From: Candidatus Micrarchaeota archaeon
Lineage (GTDB): Archaea; Micrarchaeota; Micrarchaeia; Norongarragalinales; JAPLXB01
Direction of reading: 5' to 3'
DNA: 64,000 nucleotides
Assembly: GCA_026396285.1 (NCBI GenBank)
Contig: JAPLXB010000022.1
Location: forward strand, 9,506 to 73,505
Shown: piece after piece, positions 2,604 to 57,723 of the stretch
Layout of the letters: the number at the start of each line of letters is the position of its first letter
Position numbering within the stretch: the stretch's first letter is position 1
Position numbers and translations under genes: made by a program
The notes under the pieces: model-generated
Told to the model about the DNA's origin: nothing
The model's input: only the letters and a program-made list of their open reading frames with translations
Databases searched by the model: none

Positions 2604-3122
2604 GAAATCACCGAAAAAACAGTGGATTCGCTTGTTTAAATGATTTCCGCGGCCGGCGGCTGCACGCGCAATGCTTGCGCTAACGGGTTTTGAAAAAATG
2701 GCTGCGCCGGGTTTTTTTCACGCAGCATTGGTCGTTGGTCCCTCGGGGTAGTGTCCACAAGCCAATGGCAAGTATCGTTACTGCATCAAGAAAATTGCCA
2801 TTGGATTGTGAAGAATGGCCTTTAGTGGCGGTTGGCTCAATGCTCGCTTTCGCTCGCATCTTCCACCTCCGCTCTATCAAACCCATCTGCTATGGGCGGC
2901 CTATGCTGTCTCGTTTTGGGGCCGGCTTCGTCCTTAGTTAGACCCCGACGGGATGCAGTATCAGTAGCTACCTCGGTCCTCATTTAAGGAAATCAGACTG
3001 GGACAGTTTCTTCACGACCGCTCCCGCCGAGTATGCCTTCAGGACTTATCCGATGGCGCGTGGCTACGCGGCATGCGTTGACACAACCGCATTACTAGAG
3101 GCGCCGACTCCCCGTTCCTCTC

Positions 3123-3267
3123 TTGAGCCTGGGCACTGTCCGCGAAACTGTGCAGTCCAGGATAGACTGCGGGAATTTTCACGCAACTGTTGACGACAAT
3201 TCACGGACTTTCGTCTCGTGCCGCCATCTGTTGCGCTTACCGAAAAATATGCGGGCCTTGCCCAGTG
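3123..3267 (-). other. Putative intron/insertion (about 145 nt) splitting the 23S sarcin-ricin loop
   Basis: In rRNA sense the gene reads GAGTAC[145 nt]GAGAGGAACGG. Removing the insert restores the universal AGUACGAGAGGAAC. Confidence 0.5.
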
Positions 3268-3449
3268 TACTCAGGGAACCTTACCCTCAGACAGCAAAGC
3301 ACTTCTAGGAGATGCCACCGAACTGTCTCGCGACGTTCTGAACCCAACTAACGTGCGTTTTTAACGGATGAACAACCCGACCCTTGGCGGCTCCTGCACC
3401 ACCAGGATAACGCGAGCCGATAGCGATGTACCAAACCGCGTGGTCGATT

Positions 3450-3644
3450 AGCCCTTTTCAAGGCAATTTTCCTCACAGTCGTGGTACGAGTTGGTTTCGT
3501 GACCATCGTTCGAATCAGTCGATCGCCGACTGAACGTAGAAATTTTTTGGGACTCCTGCGCCCGAATCGGCGCGACTTGAAACGAACAGCCTCGCACCAC
3601 GAGAAAATCACCATACCCTTCCATGAAAACACGGAAGAGGAAAA
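3450..3644 (-). other. Putative intron/insertion (about 195 nt) in 23S domain V
   Basis: In rRNA sense the gene reads CGAGAGTTCAT[195 nt]AATCGACCACGCGGTTTGGTACATCG. The conserved sequence is ...GAGUUCAUAUCGACGG..GUUUGGCACCUCG. The insert has no ORF. Confidence 0.5.
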
Positions 3645-6600
3645 ATGAACTCTCGCACGCGACGAGCCTGTTACCCCCGGGGTAGCTTGTCTGACAGAAC
3701 GGGCCCCCAGTAAAAGGGACACCGTTGTTCGCTAAGCCCGACTTTCGTCTCTGCGGACCATTTTGTTAGGACCACAGTCAATCCGGCATTTGTCTTTGAC
3801 CCTCTACAGCGCATTTCTGACGCGCTTGAGCCGAATATTAGGCGCCTTTGTTTTTTTATCGAAGGCGTACCGCCCCAGCCAAAACGCCCATCAGCAGCTG
3901 TCCATTTCTGTTAGAAACACAGTCAAAGAATAGCAGTGTCACACTTTCGCCTATCGCCGCCCCGGAAGGCGGCGCATAACGGCTCCTGCTTACGCTTTGA
4001 TCCCCCAACCGTATTCCAACTGCAAACTGCGTTTAAGCTCCACGGGGTCTTCGTTTCCCCCTAGAAGTCCTCGGCATGTTCACCGAGTAGTAGGTTCACC
4101 AGGTCCAAAGCTGGGACAGTGGGACGCTCGTTACGCCATTCATGCAAGCCGCCAATTAAGCGGCGAGGTATTACGCTACCTTAAGAGAGTCAGAGTTACT
4201 CCCGCTCTTTAACGGTCCTTCGCCCCCTTGAAAGGAGGTTTAAGATCCCGCCAGTGAGCAGGCGTCGGCACCCGTGCACAACGTTTCCATCTTGCGGGTA
4301 CCTGTGTTTTTGCTAAACAGTCGACGTCCCCTTGTTTACAGCCCTTTTTCGCGCTCGGGCGCTATCAACCAAATCATAAGCTTAAAAGCGGGCGCTTTCG
4401 CGTCCGCGGGTTAGCATTTCATGGGTTGTTCATTTCTTCACCGCGTGAAAAAGAGTCACTGCGACCTACCAATCCCCTTCGATGTGATCCGCGAACCCGA
4501 TTGCGTGGAACGCAATCAAGCCGCGTATAATCTCTGGAGAGAGGTAGGCATCCCTTCTTCCGAAGGTATGGGACTAACTTGCCGAATTCCCTAGCTTTGG
4601 TTCTCCTGCCACGCCTTGGCTTTTTCTGCCAGGGGCACCTTTCAGTAAACGTTTTCTTTTGGTGAAGCTTTTCTTTTCCAAAAGAAAAGGCTCAGTACTG
4701 GTTCTTGGTACGGTCTAATGGGATCCATTCCCTCACTCTTTTCAGGGGCTCGTGGAATCGGCCCAACCCTTTCGGGCTATTCCCTGCTTGGGCGCATGCT
4801 CCTCGTTACGAGACTTCTGCGCTCTGTTCAGGTTAACCACCCTCTCGGGTGGTGGGCTTGTCCGCAAGCGTCAAATGAAGGACTTGCGTTGCCGCGCGTA
4901 CCCACTAGGCACACGAATGTTAACGTGTTTCCCTTTCGGCTTCACGGTTACGTTTAGCCTTAGGACCGGCTTACTCTTGGTCGACTAGCGTTGCCAAGAA
5001 ACCCTTGCCCTTCCGGCGTCCAGGAAACGAGTAACAGGACGACGCTCCGCGTCGTCGTGTTAGTTCTCGCCTGGAATTGATGCTACTAGCACCAGGATCT
5101 TCGTCGCGACCCGGTCCACACGACCTCACGGCCGTGCTTCTACCCGGGCCCCGCGCCCTCCTAATCGGTCACGAGATTTCCTCTCGTGCGCTGGAGTATC
5201 GGTGATGCGCTTAGTCCCGATAGTTTACAGCGCCGCAGTCCTTGACGGGTCCGCTGTTACGCGTTGTTTAAAGGATGGCTGCTTCTGAGCCTACCTCCCC
5301 GCTGTCTGAGAACCATGACGCCTTGTCTTAACACTTAGCGCATGCTTTGGGACCTTAGCTCCAGTAGGGGTCGTTCCCCTCTCGGCGTACGCGCTTATCT
5401 CGTACAGCCCAACTCCCAGCGTCTTAAACGCTGACGGCTTCGGAGTTTGACAGGAAAGTGAGGATTTTACTCCCCGTTCTTCCCAGTCGGTTGCTCTACC
5501 CGTCAGCTGTCTCGGCTGAGGCTGTCCTGAGAGACACTTCGGAGGGAACCTGCTAATGCCGGCCTCGAATGAACTTTCATCCCTAGGCACGAGTCACCCC
5601 AGCGGCTGTCCAACCTTTTTGGTGAAGCTTTTTGCGTACAAAAAGGTTCTTAGACCAGCACGGGTTGCGGGCCTCCGCCAGCCTTACGGCCGGTTTCGCC
5701 CTGCTCGAGTCTAGATCGGTCCGGCTTCAGGTCTCAAACGAGTGACTCAAGGCGCTTTCGCACCCTCCCCCTCGCGCAACAAGTGCGTTGCGGGGACTCG
5801 CTTTCGCTTTGCATTGTGTGCTCGCCACTCGCATGAACTCCCTGGCCCTTGCTTCGAGAAGTATGATGCAACACTGGTTACTCCTTTCGGAGGTCATTCC
5901 TTTTGCGCCGCATCTTCTTGTAACCACCCAGTTTCAGATTCTTTGCACTGCCCTTTCGGGCTGCTTTTCAGTTTTCCATCACTGTACTGGCTGCGCTATC
6001 GGTCTCGGATTATATTTAGCGTTTGAAGTTAATGCTCCGGCTTTCCCACGCCCAATCCGGGGCGCGGTACTCTGGATCCCACCACACCCGGCGGTCGTTC
6101 GCTTACACGGCTTTCACGTTCTATGGCAAAGCTTTCCAGCTTTCTTCAGCTCCGGCTGCCGGCGTTAAAAGGTGGTCCCTGAACCCCACATCTGAACCGC
6201 CTTGCGGCGGGTCATTCGGTTTGCGCTATTCCGCTTTCGGTCGCCCTACTTGCGGAATCCTGGTTAGTTTCTTTTCCTCTCCCTACTGAGATATTTCAAT
6301 TCGGAAGGTCTTCTCTCCTCTCGGAGTTATTCGGGAACCCGCGGTTCAAAGCCTCCGTGCGGCTACCCGCGGCTTTTCGCAGCTTGGCGCGCCCTTCGTC
6401 GCTATCCGAGCCCAACCATCCACTGAGTGGCATAAACTAGTAGCACTACTCCTCGGGAACCAACGACCTATGCTGCTTCATGAAAACGAAAACGCGTGAC
6501 CGTAGTCAGCGTTTCCTCAGCGCTTGGTTCGACGACGCCCCGGGAAGGGGACTTACTCGCGAACTGCCATTCCTTTTCCAACGATTTTTACTCGCCGAAA

Positions 6601-12197: not shown

Positions 12198-14072
12198 ATG
12201 CGTTTCACCGGCTTCGCGGTCGCGTGGCTCTCCGCGATTGTTCTGATTGCTTGCGCGGCCGCCGCCGCAACTACCGTTTCGGCTTGCGGGTCGTCTCTAA
12301 ACGCCGCCGGAGAAACCTATGAGCTCAACCAGAGCATTTCCCTTGCCGGAGGCACGTGCCTCATCATCAACGCGGCAAATATCACGCTTGACTGCCAAGG
12401 CCATTCCATAACCGGCGACAGGGACGCGGCCACGCTGGCAATAGAAGTTTCCCCCTCGGCCGATAACGCGACAGTCAAAGGCTGCGAATTGGAAGACCAC
12501 GGCACCGGGATATACATCGATTCCGGGACAGTGAATCACGTCATAACTAACAACACGATTCACGACGCCCGTGATGCCGGAATCGAAAGCGACAGTTCGT
12601 GCAACAACACCGTCATTTTCAACAACACTATCTACGACGTGTACACTGATGACTTTCTGGTAGGGACAGGAATCTGGATGCGGGGCGAATACCACAACAT
12701 TTCATTCAATTCAGTGAGCAACATCGGCCAGGACGGAATAATCCTCTCTCCCTCCAACCACAGCGTCGTTTCATTTAATTCGGTGAACTGGACCCATTAC
12801 GAGGCCGGAATTTACGTGGATGGCGGCGGCTCTTACGAAAACCCTAACGCCGAGTACATAACCATTTCAGGAAACAACGTGACGTCACCGGGAGTTGACG
12901 ACGTCACGGACGGCGCGGCAGGCATATACGTGGCTGGCAGGCACTGCAACGTCTCATACAACCGGGTTTACAACAGCACGGCAGCCGGCACCGCTTCAAC
13001 CGGCATGGAATTCTACTACGGTTACAACAACACGGTTGCCGGAAATAATGTCTCATTCAACAACATGGGCATAGTAGTCTATGCAGAGGGAACGGTTTTG
13101 CGGAACAACGTAGCGGACGGCAATGCCTTCGAAGCATATGCAATCGGAGTCATAAGCGATGCGGACTTCTCCGCAACCGGCGATTATGACATCGACAGTT
13201 CAAACACAGCCAACGGCGACCCCATTCACTATTATTACGGCGCGTCCGACCTAGTAATCCAAGGCCTTTCCCTTTCCGGCGCCAACACCGCCGGCGGAAA
13301 AGTGACTTGCGTCAAGTGCACTAACATGGTCATCAAAAACAGCGTGTTCGCGAACAATGCTGGCGATGCTTCATCCGAGCTGTTCCTTGCAGGAGTCCTT
13401 TTGGTGAACTCCACCAACGTCGTAGTCATGACAAACACCATGCAGACCAACTCTTATGCGGTTTGGATCTACGGCGGTACAAACATTACGATAAAGGAAA
13501 ACAACTTCTCCACCCAGAACACCGCGGGCATACTCGTCCATTCAAACGCCACAGAAGGCTACGAAACTACAGAACTAAGCCTCGTGGACAACTATGGGTC
13601 GGACAACGCCGAATGGCTCAGCTTCGAGGGAGAACCGATTTCGTGGAGCGTTTCGAAAAACGGCTTCAGGTTATCATACTACAACGTCTCCTCCACCGAA
13701 GCGGTTGAACCCAACATATATCTTGCCAGCGGCGTCATCGCGGTGAACACCACAGCCAACCCGGCGCTGAACACGAGCGCCAACGTCACCCTCACCTTCG
13801 CCGGCAGCTGCCCGCGCATCGACCTGTACTATTACGCAAACTATTCAACGAGCCTCAGCGAAATTGTCGCCAACGGCCAGTTATGCAATTCGACTAGCAC
13901 GCCGGCGTGCAACATCATTTCCTGCTCGGGAAACACGGTCACGTTCTCGGTGTCGCACTTCGATTCCTACGGCGGCCAGGGATATGACATACCCGAATTC
14001 TCGGGCTTGGCGGCGCTGTTCGCAGCCGCCCTCGCGGGCGCGGGCTATGCGCTGGCAAGGAAAAGAAAATAG
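12198..14072 (+). CDS. Secreted right-handed parallel beta-helix repeat protein with C-terminal PEF-CTERM sorting signal
   Basis: 624 aa. It has an N-terminal signal peptide and repeated NNT[IV]xxN / GIxI motifs typical of PbH1 beta-helix repeats, plus many N-x-S/T sequons. The C-terminus ...YDIPEFSGLAALFAAALAGAGYALARKRK is a tripeptide PEF, a hydrophobic helix and a basic tail, which is the PEF-CTERM archaeosortase-type signal. Confidence 0.6.
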   Translation: MRFTGFAVAWLSAIVLIACAAAAATTVSACGSSLNAAGETYELNQSISLAGGTCLIINAANITLDCQGHSITGDRDAATLAIEVSPSADNATVKGCELEDHGTGIYIDSGTVNHVITNNTIHDARDAGIESDSSCNNTVIFNNTIYDVYTDDFLVGTGIWMRGEYHNISFNSVSNIGQDGIILSPSNHSVVSFNSVNWTHYEAGIYVDGGGSYENPNAEYITISGNNVTSPGVDDVTDGAAGIYVAGRHCNVSYNRVYNSTAAGTASTGMEFYYGYNNTVAGNNVSFNNMGIVVYAEGTVLRNNVADGNAFEAYAIGVISDADFSATGDYDIDSSNTANGDPIHYYYGASDLVIQGLSLSGANTAGGKVTCVKCTNMVIKNSVFANNAGDASSELFLAGVLLVNSTNVVVMTNTMQTNSYAVWIYGGTNITIKENNFSTQNTAGILVHSNATEGYETTELSLVDNYGSDNAEWLSFEGEPISWSVSKNGFRLSYYNVSSTEAVEPNIYLASGVIAVNTTANPALNTSANVTLTFAGSCPRIDLYYYANYSTSLSEIVANGQLCNSTSTPACNIISCSGNTVTFSVSHFDSYGGQGYDIPEFSGLAALFAAALAGAGYALARKRK

Positions 14073-31410: not shown

Positions 31411-31471
31411 GACTGGGTTTGGGATGGGAAAGTAAATAAAATGGCGGCGGCGATAATATTCTCCTGTTTCC

Positions 31472-31594
31472 GGGCCCGTAGCTCAGCTTGGCTAGACCAA
31501 CTGCTTGGGCGATGCTTCGCATCGCCGGGGTAGGCGGGGCTACAGCAGCTGGCTTTTAACCAGAAGGTCGTGGGTTCAAATCCCGCCGGGCCCG
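31472..31594 (+). tRNA. tRNA-Lys(UUU) with a roughly 48-nt non-canonical intron in the D-arm
   Basis: Exon 1 is GGGCCCGUAGCUCAGCUUGGCUAGA (31472-31496). The intron is 31497-31544. Exon 2 is GCAGCUGGCUUUUAACCAGAAGGUCGUGGGUUCAAAUCCCGCCGGGCCCG. Spliced this gives a 75-nt cloverleaf with a 7-bp acceptor stem GGGCCCG/CGGGCCC, discriminator G, a D-stem GCUC/GAGC restored only after intron removal, and anticodon loop CUUUUAA. Confidence 0.65.
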
Positions 31595-31638
31595 CTAAAT
31601 GGATTGGGTGATGCTTGGGGCATTACCGGGTGTTTCGC

Positions 31639-32280: not shown

Positions 32281-32310
32281 GTGCGGGCCAAGCGCGGCGG
32301 AACCCGTTTT

Positions 32311-33540
32311 TCACGAGACTATTTTCGCGGTGCCGTAAAGGTGCCACCGGTTCTGGGACCGCCGCATCACCGCCAGCGGCGTGGCCTTGTCGGCGCAAAT
32401 GGGTTTCTTCAACTGCAGCGAGAGAATGAAGTTCTTTTTCTTCTTCGCCGACGCCACGAAACCGACCGTCGTGGCGGTCCCTGCGCCGAGCACGAGCGGC
32501 TCGTTCTGAATGAAGGTTTCCGGGAATTTCTGGACCTGGCGCGCAATCGGGAACACTTCGACGCTGAAATCTTTCCACACCGGCGGCAGCGTGCCTGGCC
32601 GACCGGCGACGCATCCGACAAGCGAATCCGCCTTCGTGAGCGACGGGTCAAGGAGCGTGGCTATCCCAATCAACCCGCCGGGCCCTGCTTCTGGAACGCT
32701 TTCCGCGCCGGCGTTCAGCGAAGCGATTTTCGTCTTCACCGGCTCGTAAACGTCCTGCCCCTTCTTATGCCTCAGCATCCCCGGAAGCAGTTCCAGTTCC
32801 TCGCCTGCCCGCAGTTTTCCCTGGAGCAACGAGCCGCCGACCACGCCGCCGAGGATTTTTTCAACGGCGGCGCCCGGCTTGTTCACGTCGAACGAGCGGG
32901 CGACGTACAGCCGCGGCGCGGCATCGAGGTTCCTCTTCGGGGTCGGGATGTTTTCCTGGATCGCCTGCAGCAGGGCGTCAACGTTAATGCGCGAGTTCGC
33001 CGCAACCGGGATTACGGGCGCGTTCTCGTACAGCGTGCCCTTGAGTAAAGCCCGTATTTCCTTGAGGCTCTCGAGCGCCCTTTCCTTCGTCACCAAGTCA
33101 ACCTTGTTCTGGGCGACCACGACGTTCCTTATCCCGACTGTTTCAAGCACTGCCAGGTGCTCCGCGGTCTGTGCCTGAGGGCACTTCTCGCTCGCCGCGA
33201 TGACGAACAACGCGCCGTCTACGATGGATGACGCGGCAATGACCGTCGCCATCAGCGTCTCATGCCCGGGCGCGTCCACGAACGAAATCATGCGCTGCAG
33301 CTCCGCTTGGCCGCCGCACTTGCCGCACTTCTTTGAATTGGTGAAGGCCTCGGGTTCCGGGCACTTGGGGCACTTGTAAACCGCAGTGTCCGCGTAGCCC
33401 AGTTTTATGGTGATGCCGCGCTTCACTTCCTCGGAATGGGTGTCGGTCCATTTCCCGGTCAGCGCATGCGTCAGCGTGGTCTTGCCGTGGTCCACGTGCC
33501 CGGCAGTCATTATGTTTAGTTCCGACTGAACCAATTCCAA
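32311..33540 (-). CDS. eif2g: Translation initiation factor aIF2 gamma subunit
   Basis: 409 aa. G1 GHVDHGKTT, G2, DAPGHE and NKVD GTPase motifs. The aIF2-gamma-specific zinc ribbon CPKC...CGKCG. Ends in TGA. Confidence 0.9.
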   Translation of the reverse strand: MELVQSELNIMTAGHVDHGKTTLTHALTGKWTDTHSEEVKRGITIKLGYADTAVYKCPKCPEPEAFTNSKKCGKCGGQAELQRMISFVDAPGHETLMATVIAASSIVDGALFVIAASEKCPQAQTAEHLAVLETVGIRNVVVAQNKVDLVTKERALESLKEIRALLKGTLYENAPVIPVAANSRINVDALLQAIQENIPTPKRNLDAAPRLYVARSFDVNKPGAAVEKILGGVVGGSLLQGKLRAGEELELLPGMLRHKKGQDVYEPVKTKIASLNAGAESVPEAGPGGLIGIATLLDPSLTKADSLVGCVAGRPGTLPPVWKDFSVEVFPIARQVQKFPETFIQNEPLVLGAGTATTVGFVASAKKKKNFILSLQLKKPICADKATPLAVMRRSQNRWHLYGTAKIVS

Positions 33541-33662: not shown

Positions 33663-35243
33663 ATGGCGAAAGTCCACTGGGCCGACCAGGCTGCGGAAAA
33701 ACTGCTGAAGAACGAGAGCAACATCGTCGCCAGCGGCACGTCCATCTCGGGCAAGCCCCACATCGGCAACGCCAACGACGTGATACGCGCGGGCATCATC
33801 GTCGAGGCAACCAAGCAGGCGGGCGGCCGGGCGGACCTCGTGTGGGTGTCGGACAACATGGACCCCATGCGCCGCGTGCCCGAAGGCCTGCCGAAAGAGT
33901 TCGAGGAATACATGGGGATGCCGTATTCGGACATACCCGACTTGGAAGGGTGCCACGCCAGTTTCGCGGAACACTATGAAAAAATCCTCTTGGACGAAGT
34001 GGGTGCGGCTGGCGCGTTCCCAATGGTTTTCAATGGCAGGGACATGTACCGCTCCGGAATGTACGACAACGCGATAAGGACCGCGATTGAGAAAAGAGCG
34101 GAAATAAAGGCGATCCTCGACCGTTTCAGGGAACACCCGCTGCCGGCAGACTGGTTCCCGTTCAACCCGATTTGCAGCAACTGCGGGCGCGTCGCCACGC
34201 CCAAAGTCACCGGCTACGCGGACGGCAAAATAAGCTATGCCTGCGCAGACGCGGTGGTTGGAAAGGGGGAGAACCCGGTCAAGGGCTGCGGCAACGAAGG
34301 CACCGCCGACTTCCACGAGGGGAAACTGGTGTGGCGCGTGGAGTGGCCCGCGCGGTGGAAGTTCCTTGAAGTCACGTGCGAGCCGTTCGGGAAAGAGCAC
34401 GCCGCCGCAGGCGGGTCATGGGACACCGGCAAACTGATTTCGGAACAAATTTACGGTTATCCTGCGCCGCTTCCGATAATTTACGAGCACTTCCAGGTCG
34501 GGGGGCAGAAAATGAGCAAGAGCATCGGGAACGTGGTGACGGTCGGCGACTGGCTGGAGTGCGCGCCGCCCGAAACCTTGAGGTATTACCTTTTCGCAGG
34601 GGACATCAACGTCGCCAAGGACATGGACATAACGACGGTAATGCCGCACGTGATGGAGGAATACCAGCGCGTGGAAAGGATTTACTTCGGCCGCGCCCGC
34701 GAAGGAGAGGCGCCGAAGGAAGAGGAGGCTGCCGGCAAGCTGAAGCGCATTTACGAACTCAGCCAGTTGAAGTGTGTTGCGCCGAAGGAGATGCCGGCGC
34801 AGGTTCCGTACGGGTTCGCGGCGCTCCTCGCGCAGGTGGCGCCGTCGCGGGAGAAGAAAATCGAGGTCTTAAAACGCACCGGCCACTTTGACGAAAAACT
34901 GGCGGACGCGATAATGGATTTCGTGGAAAGGGCGGGTTTCTGGGCGCGGAAATACAAGGCCGAGGGGTACGTGGTTGAATTCGCTGGCGCAGCCGAGGCT
35001 AAGAAGGCGCTGGGTGCGGAAAAAGCCGCTACGGTAAAGGCATTCGCGGCCGCCTATGAGAAAAAGGATTTGCGGGACGCGGTGAAGGCGTGCGCCGCGG
35101 CAACCGGCAAGTCGGACAAGGAGGTTTTCGCGGCGGTTTACCTCGCGCTGTTTGCAAAGGAAAAGGGGCCGCGCCTCGCTTCGCTCGAGGACGCGGTGGG
35201 GAAGGAAAAGCTGCTGAAAATACTGAAAGAGGCGGTTTCGTGA
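33663..35243 (+). CDS. lysK: Lysyl-tRNA synthetase, class I (archaeal type)
   Basis: 526 aa. HIGN (HIGH-class motif) near the N-terminus and GGQKMSKSIGN (KMSKS). The size and layout are typical of class I LysRS. Confidence 0.85.
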   Translation: MAKVHWADQAAEKLLKNESNIVASGTSISGKPHIGNANDVIRAGIIVEATKQAGGRADLVWVSDNMDPMRRVPEGLPKEFEEYMGMPYSDIPDLEGCHASFAEHYEKILLDEVGAAGAFPMVFNGRDMYRSGMYDNAIRTAIEKRAEIKAILDRFREHPLPADWFPFNPICSNCGRVATPKVTGYADGKISYACADAVVGKGENPVKGCGNEGTADFHEGKLVWRVEWPARWKFLEVTCEPFGKEHAAAGGSWDTGKLISEQIYGYPAPLPIIYEHFQVGGQKMSKSIGNVVTVGDWLECAPPETLRYYLFAGDINVAKDMDITTVMPHVMEEYQRVERIYFGRAREGEAPKEEEAAGKLKRIYELSQLKCVAPKEMPAQVPYGFAALLAQVAPSREKKIEVLKRTGHFDEKLADAIMDFVERAGFWARKYKAEGYVVEFAGAAEAKKALGAEKAATVKAFAAAYEKKDLRDAVKACAAATGKSDKEVFAAVYLALFAKEKGPRLASLEDAVGKEKLLKILKEAVS

Positions 35244-35752: not shown

Positions 35753-36904
35753 TCACGGCTGCGTCCATTCTATTTCGTAGTACTCGTACTTGCTGCCCGG
35801 AAGCTCCACTCTCTTCACCCGGTAGTGAGTGATGGAAGTTTCGCGGTCGCAGATGGAGAGTATCAGTTCAAGGCCGACTTCCTTCGCGCGGCGCAGCGCC
35901 TGTGCCAGTTCCTGCCCCCCGATTTCCTCCTCTTCGCTTAGGGCCAGCATCACGAACTTCGGCTTGTCTTCCCTCGGGTTTTCTATCGCCCCGTGCTTCC
36001 GGTGGTACAACAGGAAGTCTAGTTCGGCGGCAGTCTCCTTTTTTTCGCCGGGAATCGCGAGGATGAACGTTTTTTTCACGCCGTGCGCCACGCGGATGGC
36101 GCGTGCCCATTCGCTGATTAGCATCTTGCTGTCGCGGGGGAACACGTGGATGACGTGCTTGGAGTGCATCCACTCCTCGTTCTCGAGCGTCGGTGACGCG
36201 CCCGGGAAGTAGAGGCGGAAGTGGGTGCCGAACTTGAAACCGGTTTTGAGCACGAAGCCGCGGAGGCGCCAGTCCTCGTAAACGTCGTACAGCGCGTTGA
36301 AGTCCTGCCGCCTTTGCGTCGCTTCCTTCACGAGCCGGGCTTCCTTGATGTTCAACACGTATCCGCCGTGGCGCATGAGGAAAAGCGTCTCGTACGCGTC
36401 GAGTTTGTTGAATTTCCCGTGCTTCCGCGCCTTGTACGTCCCGTACTGGCCGAACCAGTCGCGCTCATAAAGCGCCAGGCCTTTTTCCTCGTCGTCAATG
36501 ACGCTCATCAAGTCGTCGTACAAAAACAGGCCTCTGGCTTTCACGCGCGGGCAGTCAAAGTGCTTGGAAGGGTATTTCACCACCGGGCTGCGGCCGTAGT
36601 TGCCTTCGGCCTCGTCCATGGGCCTTGCCACGAGCCCGCGGTCGCGCCAGTCGCGGTAGCAGAAATAGCGCGCCATGAACTTTTTTCCCTGGAGTTTTGA
36701 CGCTAGGCGGTTGAAGGAAACCTGCTTGCCGTTGTGCGTGCAGGAGGCGTTCCTCACGTCCATCAAGTACAATGCTTCCACCGGCATTAGCTCCAGGACG
36801 TTTTTCCCGGTTTTTTTCCCGAAAAAGCCGCGCTCAAGCGCCTGCTCGGAAGTTATTTCCTTTGCCAGCACGCGTTCTCCGTCAAATTCAATAGTGACTG
36901 CCAT
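35753..36904 (-). CDS. endA: tRNA-splicing endonuclease EndA, long single-chain multi-unit form (about 383 aa)
   Basis: The true start MAVTIEFDG is at 36904. The 647-aa ORF-track version has a low-complexity spurious N-extension. Unit 1 is degenerate (YFCYRDWRDRGLVA, no catalytic triad). Unit 2 is catalytic: ALYDVYEDWRLRGFVLKTGFKFGTHFRLY...HSKHVIHVF...AHGVKK, carrying the Tyr/His/Lys triad. A further roughly 90-aa C-terminal segment resembles the last strand-helix-strand of an EndA C-domain (FVMLAL...AQALRRAKEVGLELILSI). Confidence 0.75.
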   Translation of the reverse strand: MAVTIEFDGERVLAKEITSEQALERGFFGKKTGKNVLELMPVEALYLMDVRNASCTHNGKQVSFNRLASKLQGKKFMARYFCYRDWRDRGLVARPMDEAEGNYGRSPVVKYPSKHFDCPRVKARGLFLYDDLMSVIDDEEKGLALYERDWFGQYGTYKARKHGKFNKLDAYETLFLMRHGGYVLNIKEARLVKEATQRRQDFNALYDVYEDWRLRGFVLKTGFKFGTHFRLYFPGASPTLENEEWMHSKHVIHVFPRDSKMLISEWARAIRVAHGVKKTFILAIPGEKKETAAELDFLLYHRKHGAIENPREDKPKFVMLALSEEEEIGGQELAQALRRAKEVGLELILSICDRETSITHYRVKRVELPGSKYEYYEIEWTQP

Positions 36905-37085
36905 TGGGCGTCTCCTCCGCGGGCACCAAAACCCCTTGATTGTCTGCTGCCCGGCGATTGAGTCGGCGAGCCTCTGCGGCTCTTTTAATATTCGCGCTGC
37001 CTTGATTAAAAAAGCGACTGCTTTGCAGCGGAGCCGGCGGGCCTGCCCGTCCTCCGGTCTGCCGCGTGCGGCGGGGGTAGCGGGA

Positions 37086-38363
37086 ATGGGTTTGCTTGAC
37101 GGCCTGGCGGGTTTCTGGAAAAAGCCCGGACCCAAGCCGGCTGCCGGGCGCAGGGAAATGCGCCTCGGCGAACTCGAGTCCTTCCTGAAAACGGAAAGGG
37201 CGGGAAAGCTCGCGCCTTTTGCGGAAAAATCGCGGGACGCGTGCGGAAAAATACTGGACGAACTCGCCGACGCCGCGCGGGCCGCGGAATCCCTCAGGGA
37301 CGCGGAGCCGACCGGCAAATGGAGCCGCATCGGCGAACAAATGAGGGAAAACTTCATCACACGCATAGTCCCGACCCTTGGAATCGCGCGCCACGGCGAA
37401 GGCTTTGAAGCCGCCGCCGAGTTCCACTCCAAGGCGTTCGCGGCAATCTCGGCGTGCACGAAAATATTGTCGGACAACCGGTACCTCCTGCACTTCTTTC
37501 CCAAATCCATGGGCGGTTTCGCGAAGAGGATGAACGCGGCGTCGGCGCTCGTTGAGGAACTCGGCAAAATCGTGCAAGGGGGCCGGCAGGCGGCCGCGGG
37601 GTTTGACGCGGCGGTTGGCGCGCTGAGGGAACGCGAGAAAACGCTCTCGGAGAAGGCTGTTGCCGAGAAGGAGATGGGTGAGTTGGAGGCGTTCAAAACC
37701 GGTTTGAAAAAGAGGATTGCGGAAGAGACTGCGGCCGCGTTGCCCGGGGGAAGGGGGCTTGGCGGCGCGGTTGCCGGAGGAGGCGCTTACGGGGCTGTTG
37801 AAAAAATCGCCGGCATTGAAAAGCGCGTTGGGGCGCTGAAGGCGGAGTTGGCGGTGATGCTGAACCCCCTGGATCGGCTGTTTAGGAAGTTGGAAAAAAT
37901 TTCCCTTGAGAAGCGCGTGGCTGAAAAAGCCGCTTTTTACGCGGCCGGCCCCGCCGACGCAGTGGTTGAAGGCGGAGAGGAAGGGTTGGAGGAATTGAAG
38001 CGCCTTGCAGAAGAAGTCGGCAAGGAACTCGCCGCCGGCCGCTTGGAGACGGACGGGGAGAAGAGGAAGAAAGCAGTGGCTGCTCTGGAACGGATTGACT
38101 TTGGAAAAGTTTCCGCGGCAGTGAACGAACTGGGTTCGCTTGAGAAGGAAAAGGCCGCGGCCGCAGCAGTGCTTGAAAGGGAAAAGGCCGCAGAGCGCGA
38201 GAGGCGGGACTTGGAGGAGGAGCTTGCGGCGGTGGAAATGAAGAAGGTGGCGTTGGAGGAAAAAATACGCGGCGCGGCGAAAAAACTCGCCGAATCCGTG
38301 GCGGGCATTGAAAAAAGCGCTTCCGCGGCCGCTGGCGTTGAAATAAAAATAGCCGCTGAATAA
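37086..38363 (+). CDS. Ala/Glu/Lys-rich coiled-coil protein (cytoplasmic), first gene of the filament supercluster
   Basis: 425 aa from the ATG at 37086. The longer ORF-track version overlaps endA on the other strand. Heptad-like EELAAxxAALE repeats run throughout. No TM. It ends 25 nt before the first class III signal-peptide gene. Confidence 0.4.
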   Translation: MGLLDGLAGFWKKPGPKPAAGRREMRLGELESFLKTERAGKLAPFAEKSRDACGKILDELADAARAAESLRDAEPTGKWSRIGEQMRENFITRIVPTLGIARHGEGFEAAAEFHSKAFAAISACTKILSDNRYLLHFFPKSMGGFAKRMNAASALVEELGKIVQGGRQAAAGFDAAVGALREREKTLSEKAVAEKEMGELEAFKTGLKKRIAEETAAALPGGRGLGGAVAGGGAYGAVEKIAGIEKRVGALKAELAVMLNPLDRLFRKLEKISLEKRVAEKAAFYAAGPADAVVEGGEEGLEELKRLAEEVGKELAAGRLETDGEKRKKAVAALERIDFGKVSAAVNELGSLEKEKAAAAAVLEREKAAERERRDLEEELAAVEMKKVALEEKIRGAAKKLAESVAGIEKSASAAAGVEIKIAAE

Positions 38364-38387
38364 CGCTGAATAAGTAATTCGGGGAGA

Positions 38388-38813
38388 TTGCTTCGGGTGG
38401 ATTGCTTGAGGGGACAGGCTGGTCTTGAATACGCGGCGATGGTGGCGATTGCAATCGCCATCATGGTTCCAATCTGGCTGTATGCGAGCGGCAGCATGGC
38501 TTCCGCAAAAGCGGAACTCCAATCGTCATACGCGAGGCAGCTCGTGAACAAGGTCTCAAACGCTGCTGACACCGTTTTCGTCCAAGGCGAGCCAGCCCAG
38601 TTGACGCTTTTTGTTGAATTTCCGGAAGGGCTGACTTCCGCGACCGTTGCCGGAAACGAAATTTCGTTCAGGCTTGTTACCGCGGCAGGCCCGACTGACG
38701 TTTACGCCGTCTCTCTTGCGAACCTCAGCGGCTCACTTTCAACGCGGCCGGGAAAGCACCGCGTCATAGTGAAGGCGTCTGGCGGGGCAGTCACGGTAAG
38801 CGAGGGTGATTGA
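38388..38813 (+). CDS. Class III (prepilin-type) signal peptide protein, pilin/FlaF-G-like
   Basis: 141 aa. The N-terminus ...LRGQAGLEYAAMVAIAIAIMV has a basic residue, G|Q, and E at +5 of a 20-aa hydrophobic helix. Confidence 0.55.
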   Translation: MLRVDCLRGQAGLEYAAMVAIAIAIMVPIWLYASGSMASAKAELQSSYARQLVNKVSNAADTVFVQGEPAQLTLFVEFPEGLTSATVAGNEISFRLVTAAGPTDVYAVSLANLSGSLSTRPGKHRVIVKASGGAVTVSEGD

Positions 38814-55410: not shown

Positions 55411-57723
55411 ATGAAGAAAAAAACCGCTGCAAAGAAGGGAACGGCCGGAAAACAGGCGGCCAAAGCGCGCGCGGCCAGCGGCGCCACCCGCGCAAAGAGC
55501 CACGCGCCGGCCCATCCGGCCACCCACGCGCACCACGTAAAGAAAATACGCAAGGAAATCCACCGGGCGCGCAAGGAACTCGATAAGGCGCGTAGGAAAA
55601 TCCTCGAGGCCGCGGCGACGGCAAAAGCAGCGGCGCAAGTTCCAGTACCCGCGCCGGCACCGCTTCCGGCTCCCGCACCCAAACCAGCGCAAAAAGCCGG
55701 GGGATCCCCCATCGACGCGCTCAAGAAAATATCGTTAGGAATATCCTTCGGCAAAAAGACCGCGCCAGCGCCATCGGCCGCTCCAACGCCGGCACCCGCG
55801 GCCGCTCCTGTTGCGGAAGCGAAGCCATCCGCGGAACCAAAACCGGCCGAAGCACCTGCGCCGTCCACGGCCCCAAAACCCGGGAAAAAGGCCGCAGCCG
55901 AAAAACAGCCCAAGACGGCCGCTGTCCCTGCGCCGGAAGAGGCAACTGAACCGAAAAAAGGCGTGCTGTTCGTCGAGTCCCCGGTCGACCGGATGTGCTA
56001 CGCGCTTGAAAACGCTCCGGGCAACGAGATGATGCTGGAGGCGCTTGCGGCTGAGACAGGCGTGGACGTCGCGTCGCTTGAAAGAATAGGGAAAATCCTC
56101 CAGGAAGAAGACGTATGCGAAATGATTTACCCAGTCAACGTGTTCTCGAAACCATCCATACGGCTGGTTGCAAAACAGCAGAAAAAAGCCCTCCGGCACT
56201 TCGAGGGCGACAAGCTCCTCTCCTCGTATTCGCTTGAGGAAAGCGGGGTCCCGGCCAACGTTGAAATCTGGGAGGCCAGAAGCGAAGCAAGGCCAGTGTA
56301 CTCGATAGTCGTTTCCGCCGCCGGGCCGTACACGGAAATGTTCCTCAATTACCTGCGGGACGCGATGGCGCGCGAAGTCCCCGTCCTCACCGAGGAAATC
56401 ACCGACCCAAAAAAACTGGCCAAACTCAAGGGACGCTTCTACGCCGCATCCCAAGCCAAACTCGCCGAGGAACTCGGCAGCCTCGTTGAAGACAAGAGGA
56501 ACATGCTCGCAGGCATGCTGCTCCACCGCATGTACGGCCTCGGCGAAATAGAGTTGTTGATGGCGGACAACTGGCTCGAGGAAATAGGAATCAACAGCGC
56601 AACCGAACCCATCGGCGTATACCACAAGAAGTTCGGGTGGCTCAAGACGACGATGCGCATCCCTTCCGAGGAGGAGATATACAATTACGCTTCCCAAATC
56701 GGGAGAAAAGCCGGCAGGGACATAACGCTCCTGAACCCGCTCATGGACGCGAACCTCCTGACGGGCGACCGCGTCGCGGCCACGCTCTTCCCCATTTCCT
56801 CGTCGGGGAACACGATAACCATCCGCAGGTTCGCCCGCGTCCCCTGGACGATAACAGACTTCATCAGCCCCGCGCTCAACACGATGTCCGTCGAAATGGC
56901 TGCGTTCCTGTGGCTGTGCGTCCAGTACGAGATAAACATCATGGTGGCCGGCGGCACCGCGTCAGGAAAGACGTCGGCACTCAACACTATATCGGCGCTC
57001 ACGCCCGCTTCCCAAAGGATAGTGAGCGTCGAAGACACGCGGGAACTCAACCTCCCCAAATACCTCAGATGGAACTGGATACCGCTGACCACGCGGGGCC
57101 CCAACCCCGAAGGAAAGGGCGAAGTGGAAATGCTGGACCTCACCGTCGCCGCGCTCAGGATGAGGCCGGACCGCGTCATAGTCGGCGAAGTCAGGAGAAA
57201 ACGCGAGGCAGAAGTCCTGTTCGAAGCCATGCACACCGGCCACGCAGTCTATTCCACGCTGCACGCGGACAACGCCGTCCAAGCCATCCGCAGGCTAAAC
57301 GAGGCGCCGATAGAAATCCCCAAGACCGAATTGGATGCGCTTCACTTGATGATGGTCCAGTACCGCGACCGCCGCAAAGGCATACGGAGAACATATGAGA
57401 TAACCGAACTCACCAGCGCATCAGGCGGCGAAGTCGTCCTCAACCCGTTATACAAGTGGAGGCCCCGCGACGACACGTTCGAAAAACGCAACGACAGCCT
57501 CAGGGTTTTCGGAGAACTCAACATGCACACCGGCATGACCGTCGACGAAATAAAAAGCGACATCGGCGAAAAACAAAAAGTGCTCGAATGGATGCTGGAA
57601 AACAAGGTCACGGACATAGACAAGGTCGGTGAAGTAATGAACATCTATTACAAGGAACCCGACTCAGTCGTGTCGGCGGCGAAAAAAAAGACGCCGGTAG
57701 CCGAACTTCTTGGTGAAAAATGA
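55411..57723 (+). CDS. Type IV filament ATPase, FlaI/TadA family (module 2) with roughly 170-aa Lys/Ala/Pro-rich N-terminal extension and fused wHTH-like segment
   Basis: 770 aa. Walker A GGTASGKTS and a His box MHTGHAV. Residues 1-170 are a low-complexity basic AKP-rich region. Residues about 185-260 (VDRMCYALENAPGNEMMLEALAAETGVDVASLERIGKILQEEDV) resemble the N-domain of the stand-alone protein at 44846. Confidence 0.85.
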   Translation: MKKKTAAKKGTAGKQAAKARAASGATRAKSHAPAHPATHAHHVKKIRKEIHRARKELDKARRKILEAAATAKAAAQVPVPAPAPLPAPAPKPAQKAGGSPIDALKKISLGISFGKKTAPAPSAAPTPAPAAAPVAEAKPSAEPKPAEAPAPSTAPKPGKKAAAEKQPKTAAVPAPEEATEPKKGVLFVESPVDRMCYALENAPGNEMMLEALAAETGVDVASLERIGKILQEEDVCEMIYPVNVFSKPSIRLVAKQQKKALRHFEGDKLLSSYSLEESGVPANVEIWEARSEARPVYSIVVSAAGPYTEMFLNYLRDAMAREVPVLTEEITDPKKLAKLKGRFYAASQAKLAEELGSLVEDKRNMLAGMLLHRMYGLGEIELLMADNWLEEIGINSATEPIGVYHKKFGWLKTTMRIPSEEEIYNYASQIGRKAGRDITLLNPLMDANLLTGDRVAATLFPISSSGNTITIRRFARVPWTITDFISPALNTMSVEMAAFLWLCVQYEINIMVAGGTASGKTSALNTISALTPASQRIVSVEDTRELNLPKYLRWNWIPLTTRGPNPEGKGEVEMLDLTVAALRMRPDRVIVGEVRRKREAEVLFEAMHTGHAVYSTLHADNAVQAIRRLNEAPIEIPKTELDALHLMMVQYRDRRKGIRRTYEITELTSASGGEVVLNPLYKWRPRDDTFEKRNDSLRVFGELNMHTGMTVDEIKSDIGEKQKVLEWMLENKVTDIDKVGEVMNIYYKEPDSVVSAAKKKTPVAELLGEK

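Follow-up and report, generated by a model that had tools for sequence, protein, structure and literature searches.

Anatomy of the tRNA-Lys(UUU) gene

The stretch of DNA analysed here, 64,000 nucleotides in all and called the window below, is archaeal, contains LSU rRNA, SSU rRNA, tRNA-Ala and RNase P RNA genes, and has a G+C content of about 57%. Positions 31472-31594 of its forward strand hold a tRNA-Lys(UUU) gene in which the 3' strand of the D-stem is broken by a 48-nt insert. Read from the 5' end, the gene comprises the acceptor 5' strand (GGGCCCG), U8 and A9, the D-stem 5' strand (GCUC), the D-loop (AGCUUGGCUA), the interrupted D-stem 3' strand (GA, the 48 nt, GC), A26, the anticodon arm (GCUGG-CUUUUAA-CCAGA), the variable loop AGGUC, the T-arm (GUGGG-UUCAAAU-CCCGC), the acceptor 3' strand (CGGGCCC) and a discriminator G; CCA is not encoded at the 3' end. 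The 5' exon (31472-31495, +) thus runs from the acceptor 5' strand to G22, and the 3' exon (31544-31594, +) from A23, G24, C25 and A26 to G73. The D-stem 3' strand GAGC is regained only by taking out 48 nt. The initial annotation had tied this to removal of 31497-31544; the need to remove 48 nt stands, but removal of 31496-31543 gives the same product.

The spliced RNA is 75 nt long (GGGCCCGUAGCUCAGCUUGGCUAGAGCAGCUGGCUUUUAACCAGAAGGUCGUGGGUUCAAAUCCCGCCGGGCCCG), with ...GGCUAG joined to AGCAGCUGG... at the exon junction. ARAGORN folds this 75-mer into a clean tRNA-Lys(ttt) with all four stems (7-bp acceptor, 4-bp D and 5-bp T among them), so that excision leaves a complete cloverleaf in which the only mismatch is G27.A43, in the anticodon stem. 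Since all four same-clade orthologues share G27.A43, this mismatch is inherited and is no artefact of the splice. The initial description of all arms as contiguous and canonical consequently holds for the acceptor stem, the CUUUUAA loop, the AGGUC variable loop and the T-arm, but not for the anticodon stem.

Upstream of the gene, a TATA-like element (TAAATAAAAT, 31433-31442, +) lies about 35 nt before the mature 5' end and is a candidate promoter. The block GGGAAAGTAAATAAAAT is found with 17/17 identity upstream of the orthologue in one relative (L016), and similar A/T boxes precede those of two others (L001 and L017). Downstream, an adenylate kinase gene begins 45 nt after the tRNA-Lys gene.

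Standard tRNA finders perform poorly at this locus. Default ARAGORN makes no call at 31472-31594, and the Rfam tRNA model, run on the genomic sequence, gives a partial 29.1-bit match to 31536-31594. The same model fails entirely on the doubly interrupted L001 orthologue and reaches 25.8 bits on that of L016. Relaxed ARAGORN (-ps90) makes calls at 1232-1371, 13041-13238, 34820-34994, 38301-38486 and 55766-55874, all of which we rejected as spurious: the stems at 13041-13238 and 55766-55874 are poor on inspection, 1232-1371 overlaps the 5' end of the RNase P RNA and runs past it, and 34820-34994 lies within the LysRS reading frame. A second non-canonical tRNA intron had been reported for the 64 kb, and we could not recover one: when all of the roughly 47,600 strict bulge-helix-bulge (BHB) candidates in the window were excised and passed to ARAGORN, only tRNA-Lys(UUU) was recovered, and neither a T-arm/acceptor pattern scan nor a permissive Rfam scan found another interrupted tRNA in the window.

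Predicted splice junction and comparison with orthologues

Among 48-nt excisions, only two, 31496-31543 and 31497-31544, match the orthologues, and they yield the same mature RNA. The ambiguity, estimated beforehand at 1-2 nt, is therefore exactly one nucleotide (an A), and it is settled by BHB geometry. Our scan rule demands two 3-nt bulges, one per strand, around a 4-bp central helix H: the exon strand of H stops 2 nt short of the 5' cut, and its intron strand is the four nucleotides that stop 2 nt short of the 3' cut. By this rule 31496-31543 is selected, with H at 4/4, against 0/4 for 31497-31544. Because it alone of the two equivalent excisions has BHB geometry, we place the intron at 31496-31543 (+), position 22/23, in place of the approximate 23/24 of the initial annotation. 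The rule scan, combined with an exact orthologue match, replaced a brute-force run of ARAGORN over all boundaries, which was non-discriminating in that it called some tRNA for nearly any excision.

The elements of the motif (H=4, h=1, h'=2 at the orthologue-restoring excision) can be followed along the precursor. The 5' strand of the central helix is GGCU at 31490-31493 (+), that is G18, G19, C20 and U20a, and it pairs with GGCU at 31538-31541 (+) through G.U, G-C, C-G and U.G, so that two of the four pairs are wobbles of the G.U type. The 5' splice-site bulge (31494-31496, +) consists of A21, G22 and the first intron base (AG↓A), with a predicted cut after 31495; the 3' bulge (31542-31544, +) reads AC↓A, with a predicted cut after 31543. 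The folding check that had been proposed for the exon-intron junctions thus returns the expected arrangement, a 4-bp helix flanked by two 3-nt bulges, each cut 2 nt in. Between the strands of H, the intron forms a rod, h' (31497-31537, +), composed of 2 bp (31497-98/31536-37), a 2x2 loop, 6 bp (31501-06/31528-33), a G.G and a terminal hairpin. A self-complementary hairpin had been noted in the insert from the start, and it is indeed present, though in corrected form: 8 bp, 31508-15/31519-26, closed by a UUC triloop. RNAfold gives the intron -27.1 kcal/mol, with 16 bp in the rod in all.

The unconstrained minimum free energy (MFE) structure of the 123-nt precursor displays the 3-nt AGA bulge at the 5' splice site, the 4-bp helix and the rod. 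It was more informative than a BHB structure built by hand, which scored poorly with the D-stem region left open. On the exon side, helix h amounts to a single bp (U.G), so that the motif is intermediate between strict hBHBh' and relaxed HBh'; with two G.U pairs in H besides, it leans to the relaxed end. A competing pairing of CUGCU (31501-05) with AGCAG (31544-48) can also be drawn. In 200,000 shuffles of the window intron, a BHB with H=4 and h'>=2 arose at the restoring junction in 0.9% of cases; the corresponding figure for the L001 intron is 0.7%. The BHB match at the tRNA-restoring junction exceeds chance.

Other classes of insert were considered as well. Self-splicing group I and group II introns, which run to hundreds of nucleotides, find no counterpart here, the insert being 48 nt long and the window having no Rfam intron match at the gathering score or at E<=5. 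Nor does the insert resemble an intron-encoded C/D box sRNA of the sort known from the euryarchaeal tRNA-Trp intron: neither a C box (RUGAUGA) nor a D box (CUGA) occurs in ACCAACUGCUUGGGCGAUGCUUCGCAUCGCCGGGGUAGGCGGGGCUAC, and Rfam reports no snoRNA match at the locus.

Relatives of this lineage were gathered by way of two genes, EndA and the adenylate kinase next to tRNA-Lys. In four of them (L016 and L017-L019), the orthologue upstream of adenylate kinase has a contiguous D-arm and agrees with the spliced product at every one of nucleotides 1-38, A26 and G27 among them; the 5' exon itself equals nucleotides 1-24 of the L016 and L017 genes. On sequence comparison, this identity is the strongest single test of the proposed splice. 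In L002, L003 and L014, and in L007, tRNA-Lys(UUU) is wholly uninterrupted and its D-arm is identical or almost so, and the L007 gene scores 69.6 bits with the Rfam tRNA model. Exact-pattern scans with the anticodon and T-arm in genome and metagenome collections added two further archaeal relatives, both uninterrupted, the remaining hits being bacterial look-alikes; a LysRS-anchored scan of 185k species genomes gave no match.

The closest relative, L001, is fully syntenic and has an EndA 87% identical to that of the window. Its tRNA-Lys gene carries a homologous intron of 54 nt at the same site, sharing the central hairpin core, while its D-loop is one base shorter. The helix H, GGCU/GGCU in the window, is UGGC/GCCA in L001, where all four pairs are Watson-Crick; both bulges (AG↓A, AC↓A) stay the same, and h' has 7 bp. 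Compensatory change in the BHB is thus seen across two sequences, window and L001. Between them, 51/51 and 23/24 exon positions are identical, whereas the intron flanks have diverged and contain indels, a pattern expected of a functional, spliced gene.

Five intron states of tRNA-Lys are found in close relatives, namely no intron (L002, 18867-18792, -; L007, 427-350, -), 37/38 alone (L017, 2282-2396, and likewise L018 and L019), 37/38 with 59/60 (L016, 45-204), 22/23 alone, and 22/23 with 59/60 (L001, 7013-6849, -). At 59/60, L001 and L016 have introns of unrelated sequence. Taken as a series of sequences, these states indicate rapid intron turnover.

The tRNA-splicing endonuclease and alternative readings

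The window also encodes a tRNA-splicing endonuclease. EndA (35753-36904, -) is a protein of 383 aa starting MAVTIEF, with the Pfam domains tRNA_int_endo and tRNA_int_endo_N, and it is of the ε2 (three-unit) type. It is 100% identical to an NCBI entry named tRNA-intron lyase [Candidatus Micrarchaeota archaeon], and its residues 8-383 align with residues 10-387 of ARMAN-2 EndA (PDB 4fz2; also 9w2k) with E=9e-131. A single chain of about 390 aa, end-to-end similarity to ARMAN-2 EndA and the key residues are therefore all found together. In the 4fz2 alignment, the catalytic Y236, H251 and K282, the bulge-stacking R275 and W384, and Y160 and K161 of the ARMAN-specific loop are identical, the roles of these residues in ARMAN-2 EndA being those given in PMC12397907. 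The mechanical ORF at this place (35753-37696, -) has 647 codons and overshoots the 383-aa EndA by 264 codons.

ε2 EndA has been shown experimentally to cut non-canonical BHB introns and accepts relaxed motifs (PMC3239211); only the (αβ)2 and ε2 types of endonuclease cleave non-canonical introns (PMC5829648). The host thus has an endonuclease that is ε2 by sequence and for which these two sources point to broad specificity. It is the likely enzyme to cut the tRNA-Lys intron, as far as its sequence indicates.

A class I LysRS gene (33663-35243, +) lies between the two. The distances from tRNA-Lys, given initially as within 2.1 kb for LysRS and within 4.2 kb for endA, were borne out, at 2.07 kb and 4.16 kb. 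The two genes, EndA and class I LysRS, are neighbours not only in the window but also in three relatives among the Micrarchaeota (L001, 912-4004; L002, 10001-12945; L006, 10001-12754), with EndA identity down to 72%. The synteny is thus conserved, although the relative orientation of the pair differs between genomes, and some of these genomes also have tRNA-Lys within 2-8 kb. Of two overlapping reading frames nearby, that of 255 aa (32281-33048, +) has no Pfam match, and that of 409 aa (32311-33540, -) is probably eIF2-gamma, by synteny with L001.

Our preferred reading is that 31472-31594 is a functional tRNA-Lys(UUU) gene of a Micrarchaeota (DPANN) archaeon, with a protein-spliced, 48-nt BHB intron that splits the D-stem 3' strand at 22/23, and to this reading we assign a probability of about 90%. 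The central proposal of the initial annotation, a tRNA-Lys(UUU) with a 48-nt intron in the D-arm, is upheld by the ARAGORN fold of the spliced RNA, by identity to orthologues, by the co-varying BHB and by the nearby ε2 EndA. The preferred reading is also favoured by the excision of every strict BHB candidate in the window, which recovered this tRNA alone, and by the BHB-bounded inserts in 23S rRNA and RNase P RNA of the same genome. In the cell, an EndA homodimer (ε2) would cleave both 3-nt bulges, at AG↓A and AC↓A, while the 16-bp intron rod would keep the BHB motif in shape; an RtcB-type ligase would presumably join the two tRNA-Lys exons, and CCA would be added after splicing because the gene encodes none.

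An intron-aware run of ARAGORN (-i) proposes a different gene at 31472-31595, tRNA-Pro(tgg) i(38,35), in which a tRNA-Pro(UGG) has its anticodon loop split at the canonical place by a 35-nt intron and carries a long variable arm. This call is a forced fit, because ARAGORN permits introns in the anticodon loop only. It leaves the D-stem mismatched (GCUC/GACC), sets A against C at one position of the anticodon stem, and requires a class-II-like long variable arm that is really the perfect CUUUUAA anticodon arm. The comparison with orthologues, all of them tRNA-Lys(UUU) with the CUUUUAA loop at the anticodon position, refutes it, and we give it practically no credence. It is also very unlikely that the locus is a tRNA pseudogene, or a gene inactivated by a small repeat or hairpin insertion, in which the insert stays in and nothing functional is made. 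The core of the insert hairpin does resemble the tip of RNase P P12 (21/22) and the tRNA 3' trailer, as would a dispersed element, and neither ARAGORN nor Rfam calls the locus as an ordinary tRNA. However, it is the insert that diverges between window and L001, not the conserved exons; L001 also keeps the splice-site bulges and shows co-variation in the central helix, and every syntenic orthologue is a tRNA-Lys(UUU), several of them with BHB introns elsewhere. Further, no second tRNA-Lys(UUU) was found in the 64-kb window, the call at 55766-55874 being a poor structure of 77% GC.

The remaining alternative accepts the intron and moves the cuts, either to 31496/31497 and 31544/31545 (23/24) or to another relaxed motif. 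Both junctions give the same mature RNA, ε2 EndA tolerates relaxed motifs (PMC3239211), h is weak, and the MFE structure has an alternative register on the 3' side with a 1-nt bulge. Against this, the shifted junction leaves the central-helix positions unpaired (0/4) not only in the window but also in L001, where 22/23 again pairs 4/4, and we regard a cut elsewhere as most improbable.

Related inserts, a possible intron family and known systems

Inserts with similar splice-site motifs are found in other stable RNAs of the window. The RNase P RNA gene (903-1282, -; 64.7 bits, under the gathering score of 84) contains an insert of 49 nt (978-930, -) between P2 and J2/4, with H CGGA/UCCG, bulges UA↓A and GA↓A, and an h' of 7 bp. 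It is the top-ranked strict BHB of its region, and its excision restores consensus spacing. In the sister lineage L022, a different insert of 93 nt occupies exactly this site (2179-2087, -); its H is unchanged, its bulges are again 3 nt long, and its 8-bp h' shows compensatory changes. The RNase P RNA of L025 (2144-2463, -) is insert-free and scores 89.1 bits. By its sequence, the window insert is a candidate EndA-spliced intron. Such an intron in RNase P RNA is apparently unreported, none having been found in the searchable literature.

In the 23S rRNA gene (LSU, 2803-6451, -), alignment to the insert-free L025 reveals three inserts in the 3' third, at 3644-3449, 3266-3123 and 3032-2938 (196, 144 and 95 nt). 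Each lacks an ORF, and its alignment boundaries coincide exactly with a strict BHB; L020 and L023 have 23S inserts at the same model positions. As the splice-site motif is shared, one EndA probably serves both tRNA-Lys and the 23S inserts. The SSU of the window is also over-long (1611 against 1478 nt). A LAGLIDADG_3 homing-endonuclease ORF (4335-4700, -) stands beside or inside the 23S gene of L022, adjoining an LSU fragment (3750-4328), and suggests a larger, ORF-bearing rRNA intron in the L001/L022 MAG.

A sequence motif, UUGG(G), a 7-8 bp hairpin with a 3-4 nt loop, then CCGG(G)(U)GUAG, recurs across stable-RNA loci: in tRNA introns, in the tRNA-Lys 3' trailers of the window and L001, at the RNase P P12 tip and in the RNase P insert. 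Its copies lie at 31505-31533, 31601-31634, 1089-1063 (-) and 974-947 (-) in the window, and at 6981-6954, 6896-6867, 6841-6812 and 10765-10733 (all -) in L001. The core of the L001 T-loop intron and that of the window RNase P insert are identical over 23/23 positions (E=5e-8), and the D-arm intron hairpin matches the RNase P P12 tip at 21/22 (E=7e-5). The recurrence may reflect a mobile intron family, a processing signal or a site bound by protein. We dropped the idea that the motif is a K-turn or a C/D-like L7Ae site, as it does not fit the tandem G.A consensus.

It is possible, though we hold it only tentatively, that the D-arm intron belongs to a recently mobile family of ORF-less BHB mini-introns inserted at tRNA 22/23 and 59/60, in 23S rRNA and in RNase P RNA. 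Counted in its favour are the varied intron configurations of tRNA-Lys, the shared cores, and the differing RNase P inserts of the window and L022, with none in L025. A comparable proposal exists for Thermoproteales, in which related intron sequences occur in different genes and have been interpreted as the result of transposition (PMC4090602); the hairpin matches of the window would likewise suggest a related, possibly mobile, family.

The best-described system of this kind is that of Candidatus Micrarchaeum acidiphilum ARMAN-2, a Micrarchaeon with ε2 EndA and non-canonical tRNA introns (Fujishima et al. 2011, PMC3239211; Hirata et al. 2012, PMC3488258; Miyata et al. 2025, PMC12397907). The window shares with it the phylum, the enzyme type and a short, ORF-less BHB intron outside 37/38, and the 59/60 introns of its relatives occupy the site used in ARMAN-2 tRNA-Cys and tRNA-Pro. 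The ARMAN-2 cases in the published figures are in the T-loop (53/54, 59/60) and at 37/38, whereas the window intron is at 22/23. The present lineage further differs in being uncultured, in its GC content of about 57% and in an EndA about 60% identical to that of ARMAN-2. Position 22/23 is named among the known archaeal non-canonical intron sites (Yoshihisa 2014, PMC4090602), and it is a site of Thermoproteales tRNA introns, which resemble the window intron also in being recognised through a BHB or relaxed BHB, whatever the fold of the mature tRNA (PMC4090602). Thermoproteales, however, have an (αβ)2 EndA with a Crenarchaea-specific loop, in contrast to the ε2 enzyme with an ARMAN-specific loop found here, and belong to another phylum. 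With the canonical hBHBh' intron at 37/38, the window intron has in common the 3-4-3 geometry, the cut 2 nt into each bulge and the same chemistry, but its motif uses the D-loop in place of the anticodon loop, h is nearly absent, and the gene is missed or mislabelled by standard finders. The ORF-less BHB introns of archaeal rRNA share the splice-site motif and differ in host RNA and in length (95-196 nt there).

Position 22/23 is known from the literature, as is heavy disruption of tRNAs in Micrarchaeota, and the BHB intron of tRNA-Lys is a sound but ordinary case for this lineage, a fresh example of a published kind of intron. Default ARAGORN is blind to the gene, Rfam is marginal and intron-aware ARAGORN answers tRNA-Pro(UGG); automated annotation of this and comparable DPANN MAGs would therefore lack tRNA-Lys(UUU), report a spurious tRNA-Pro and deflate completeness. 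For non-canonical introns, tRNAscan-SE 2.0 has dedicated BHB models (PMC8450103). With the window, the association of ε2 EndA with scattered tRNA introns, published for ARMAN-2, reaches a further lineage of Micrarchaeota, and the tRNA-Lys orthologues provide a compact natural series for intron gain and loss. The RNase P intron, if confirmed, would be a new class of EndA substrate and would couple two tRNA-processing machines; if the mobile mini-intron family is real, the RNase P ribozyme would need the tRNA-splicing endonuclease for its own maturation.
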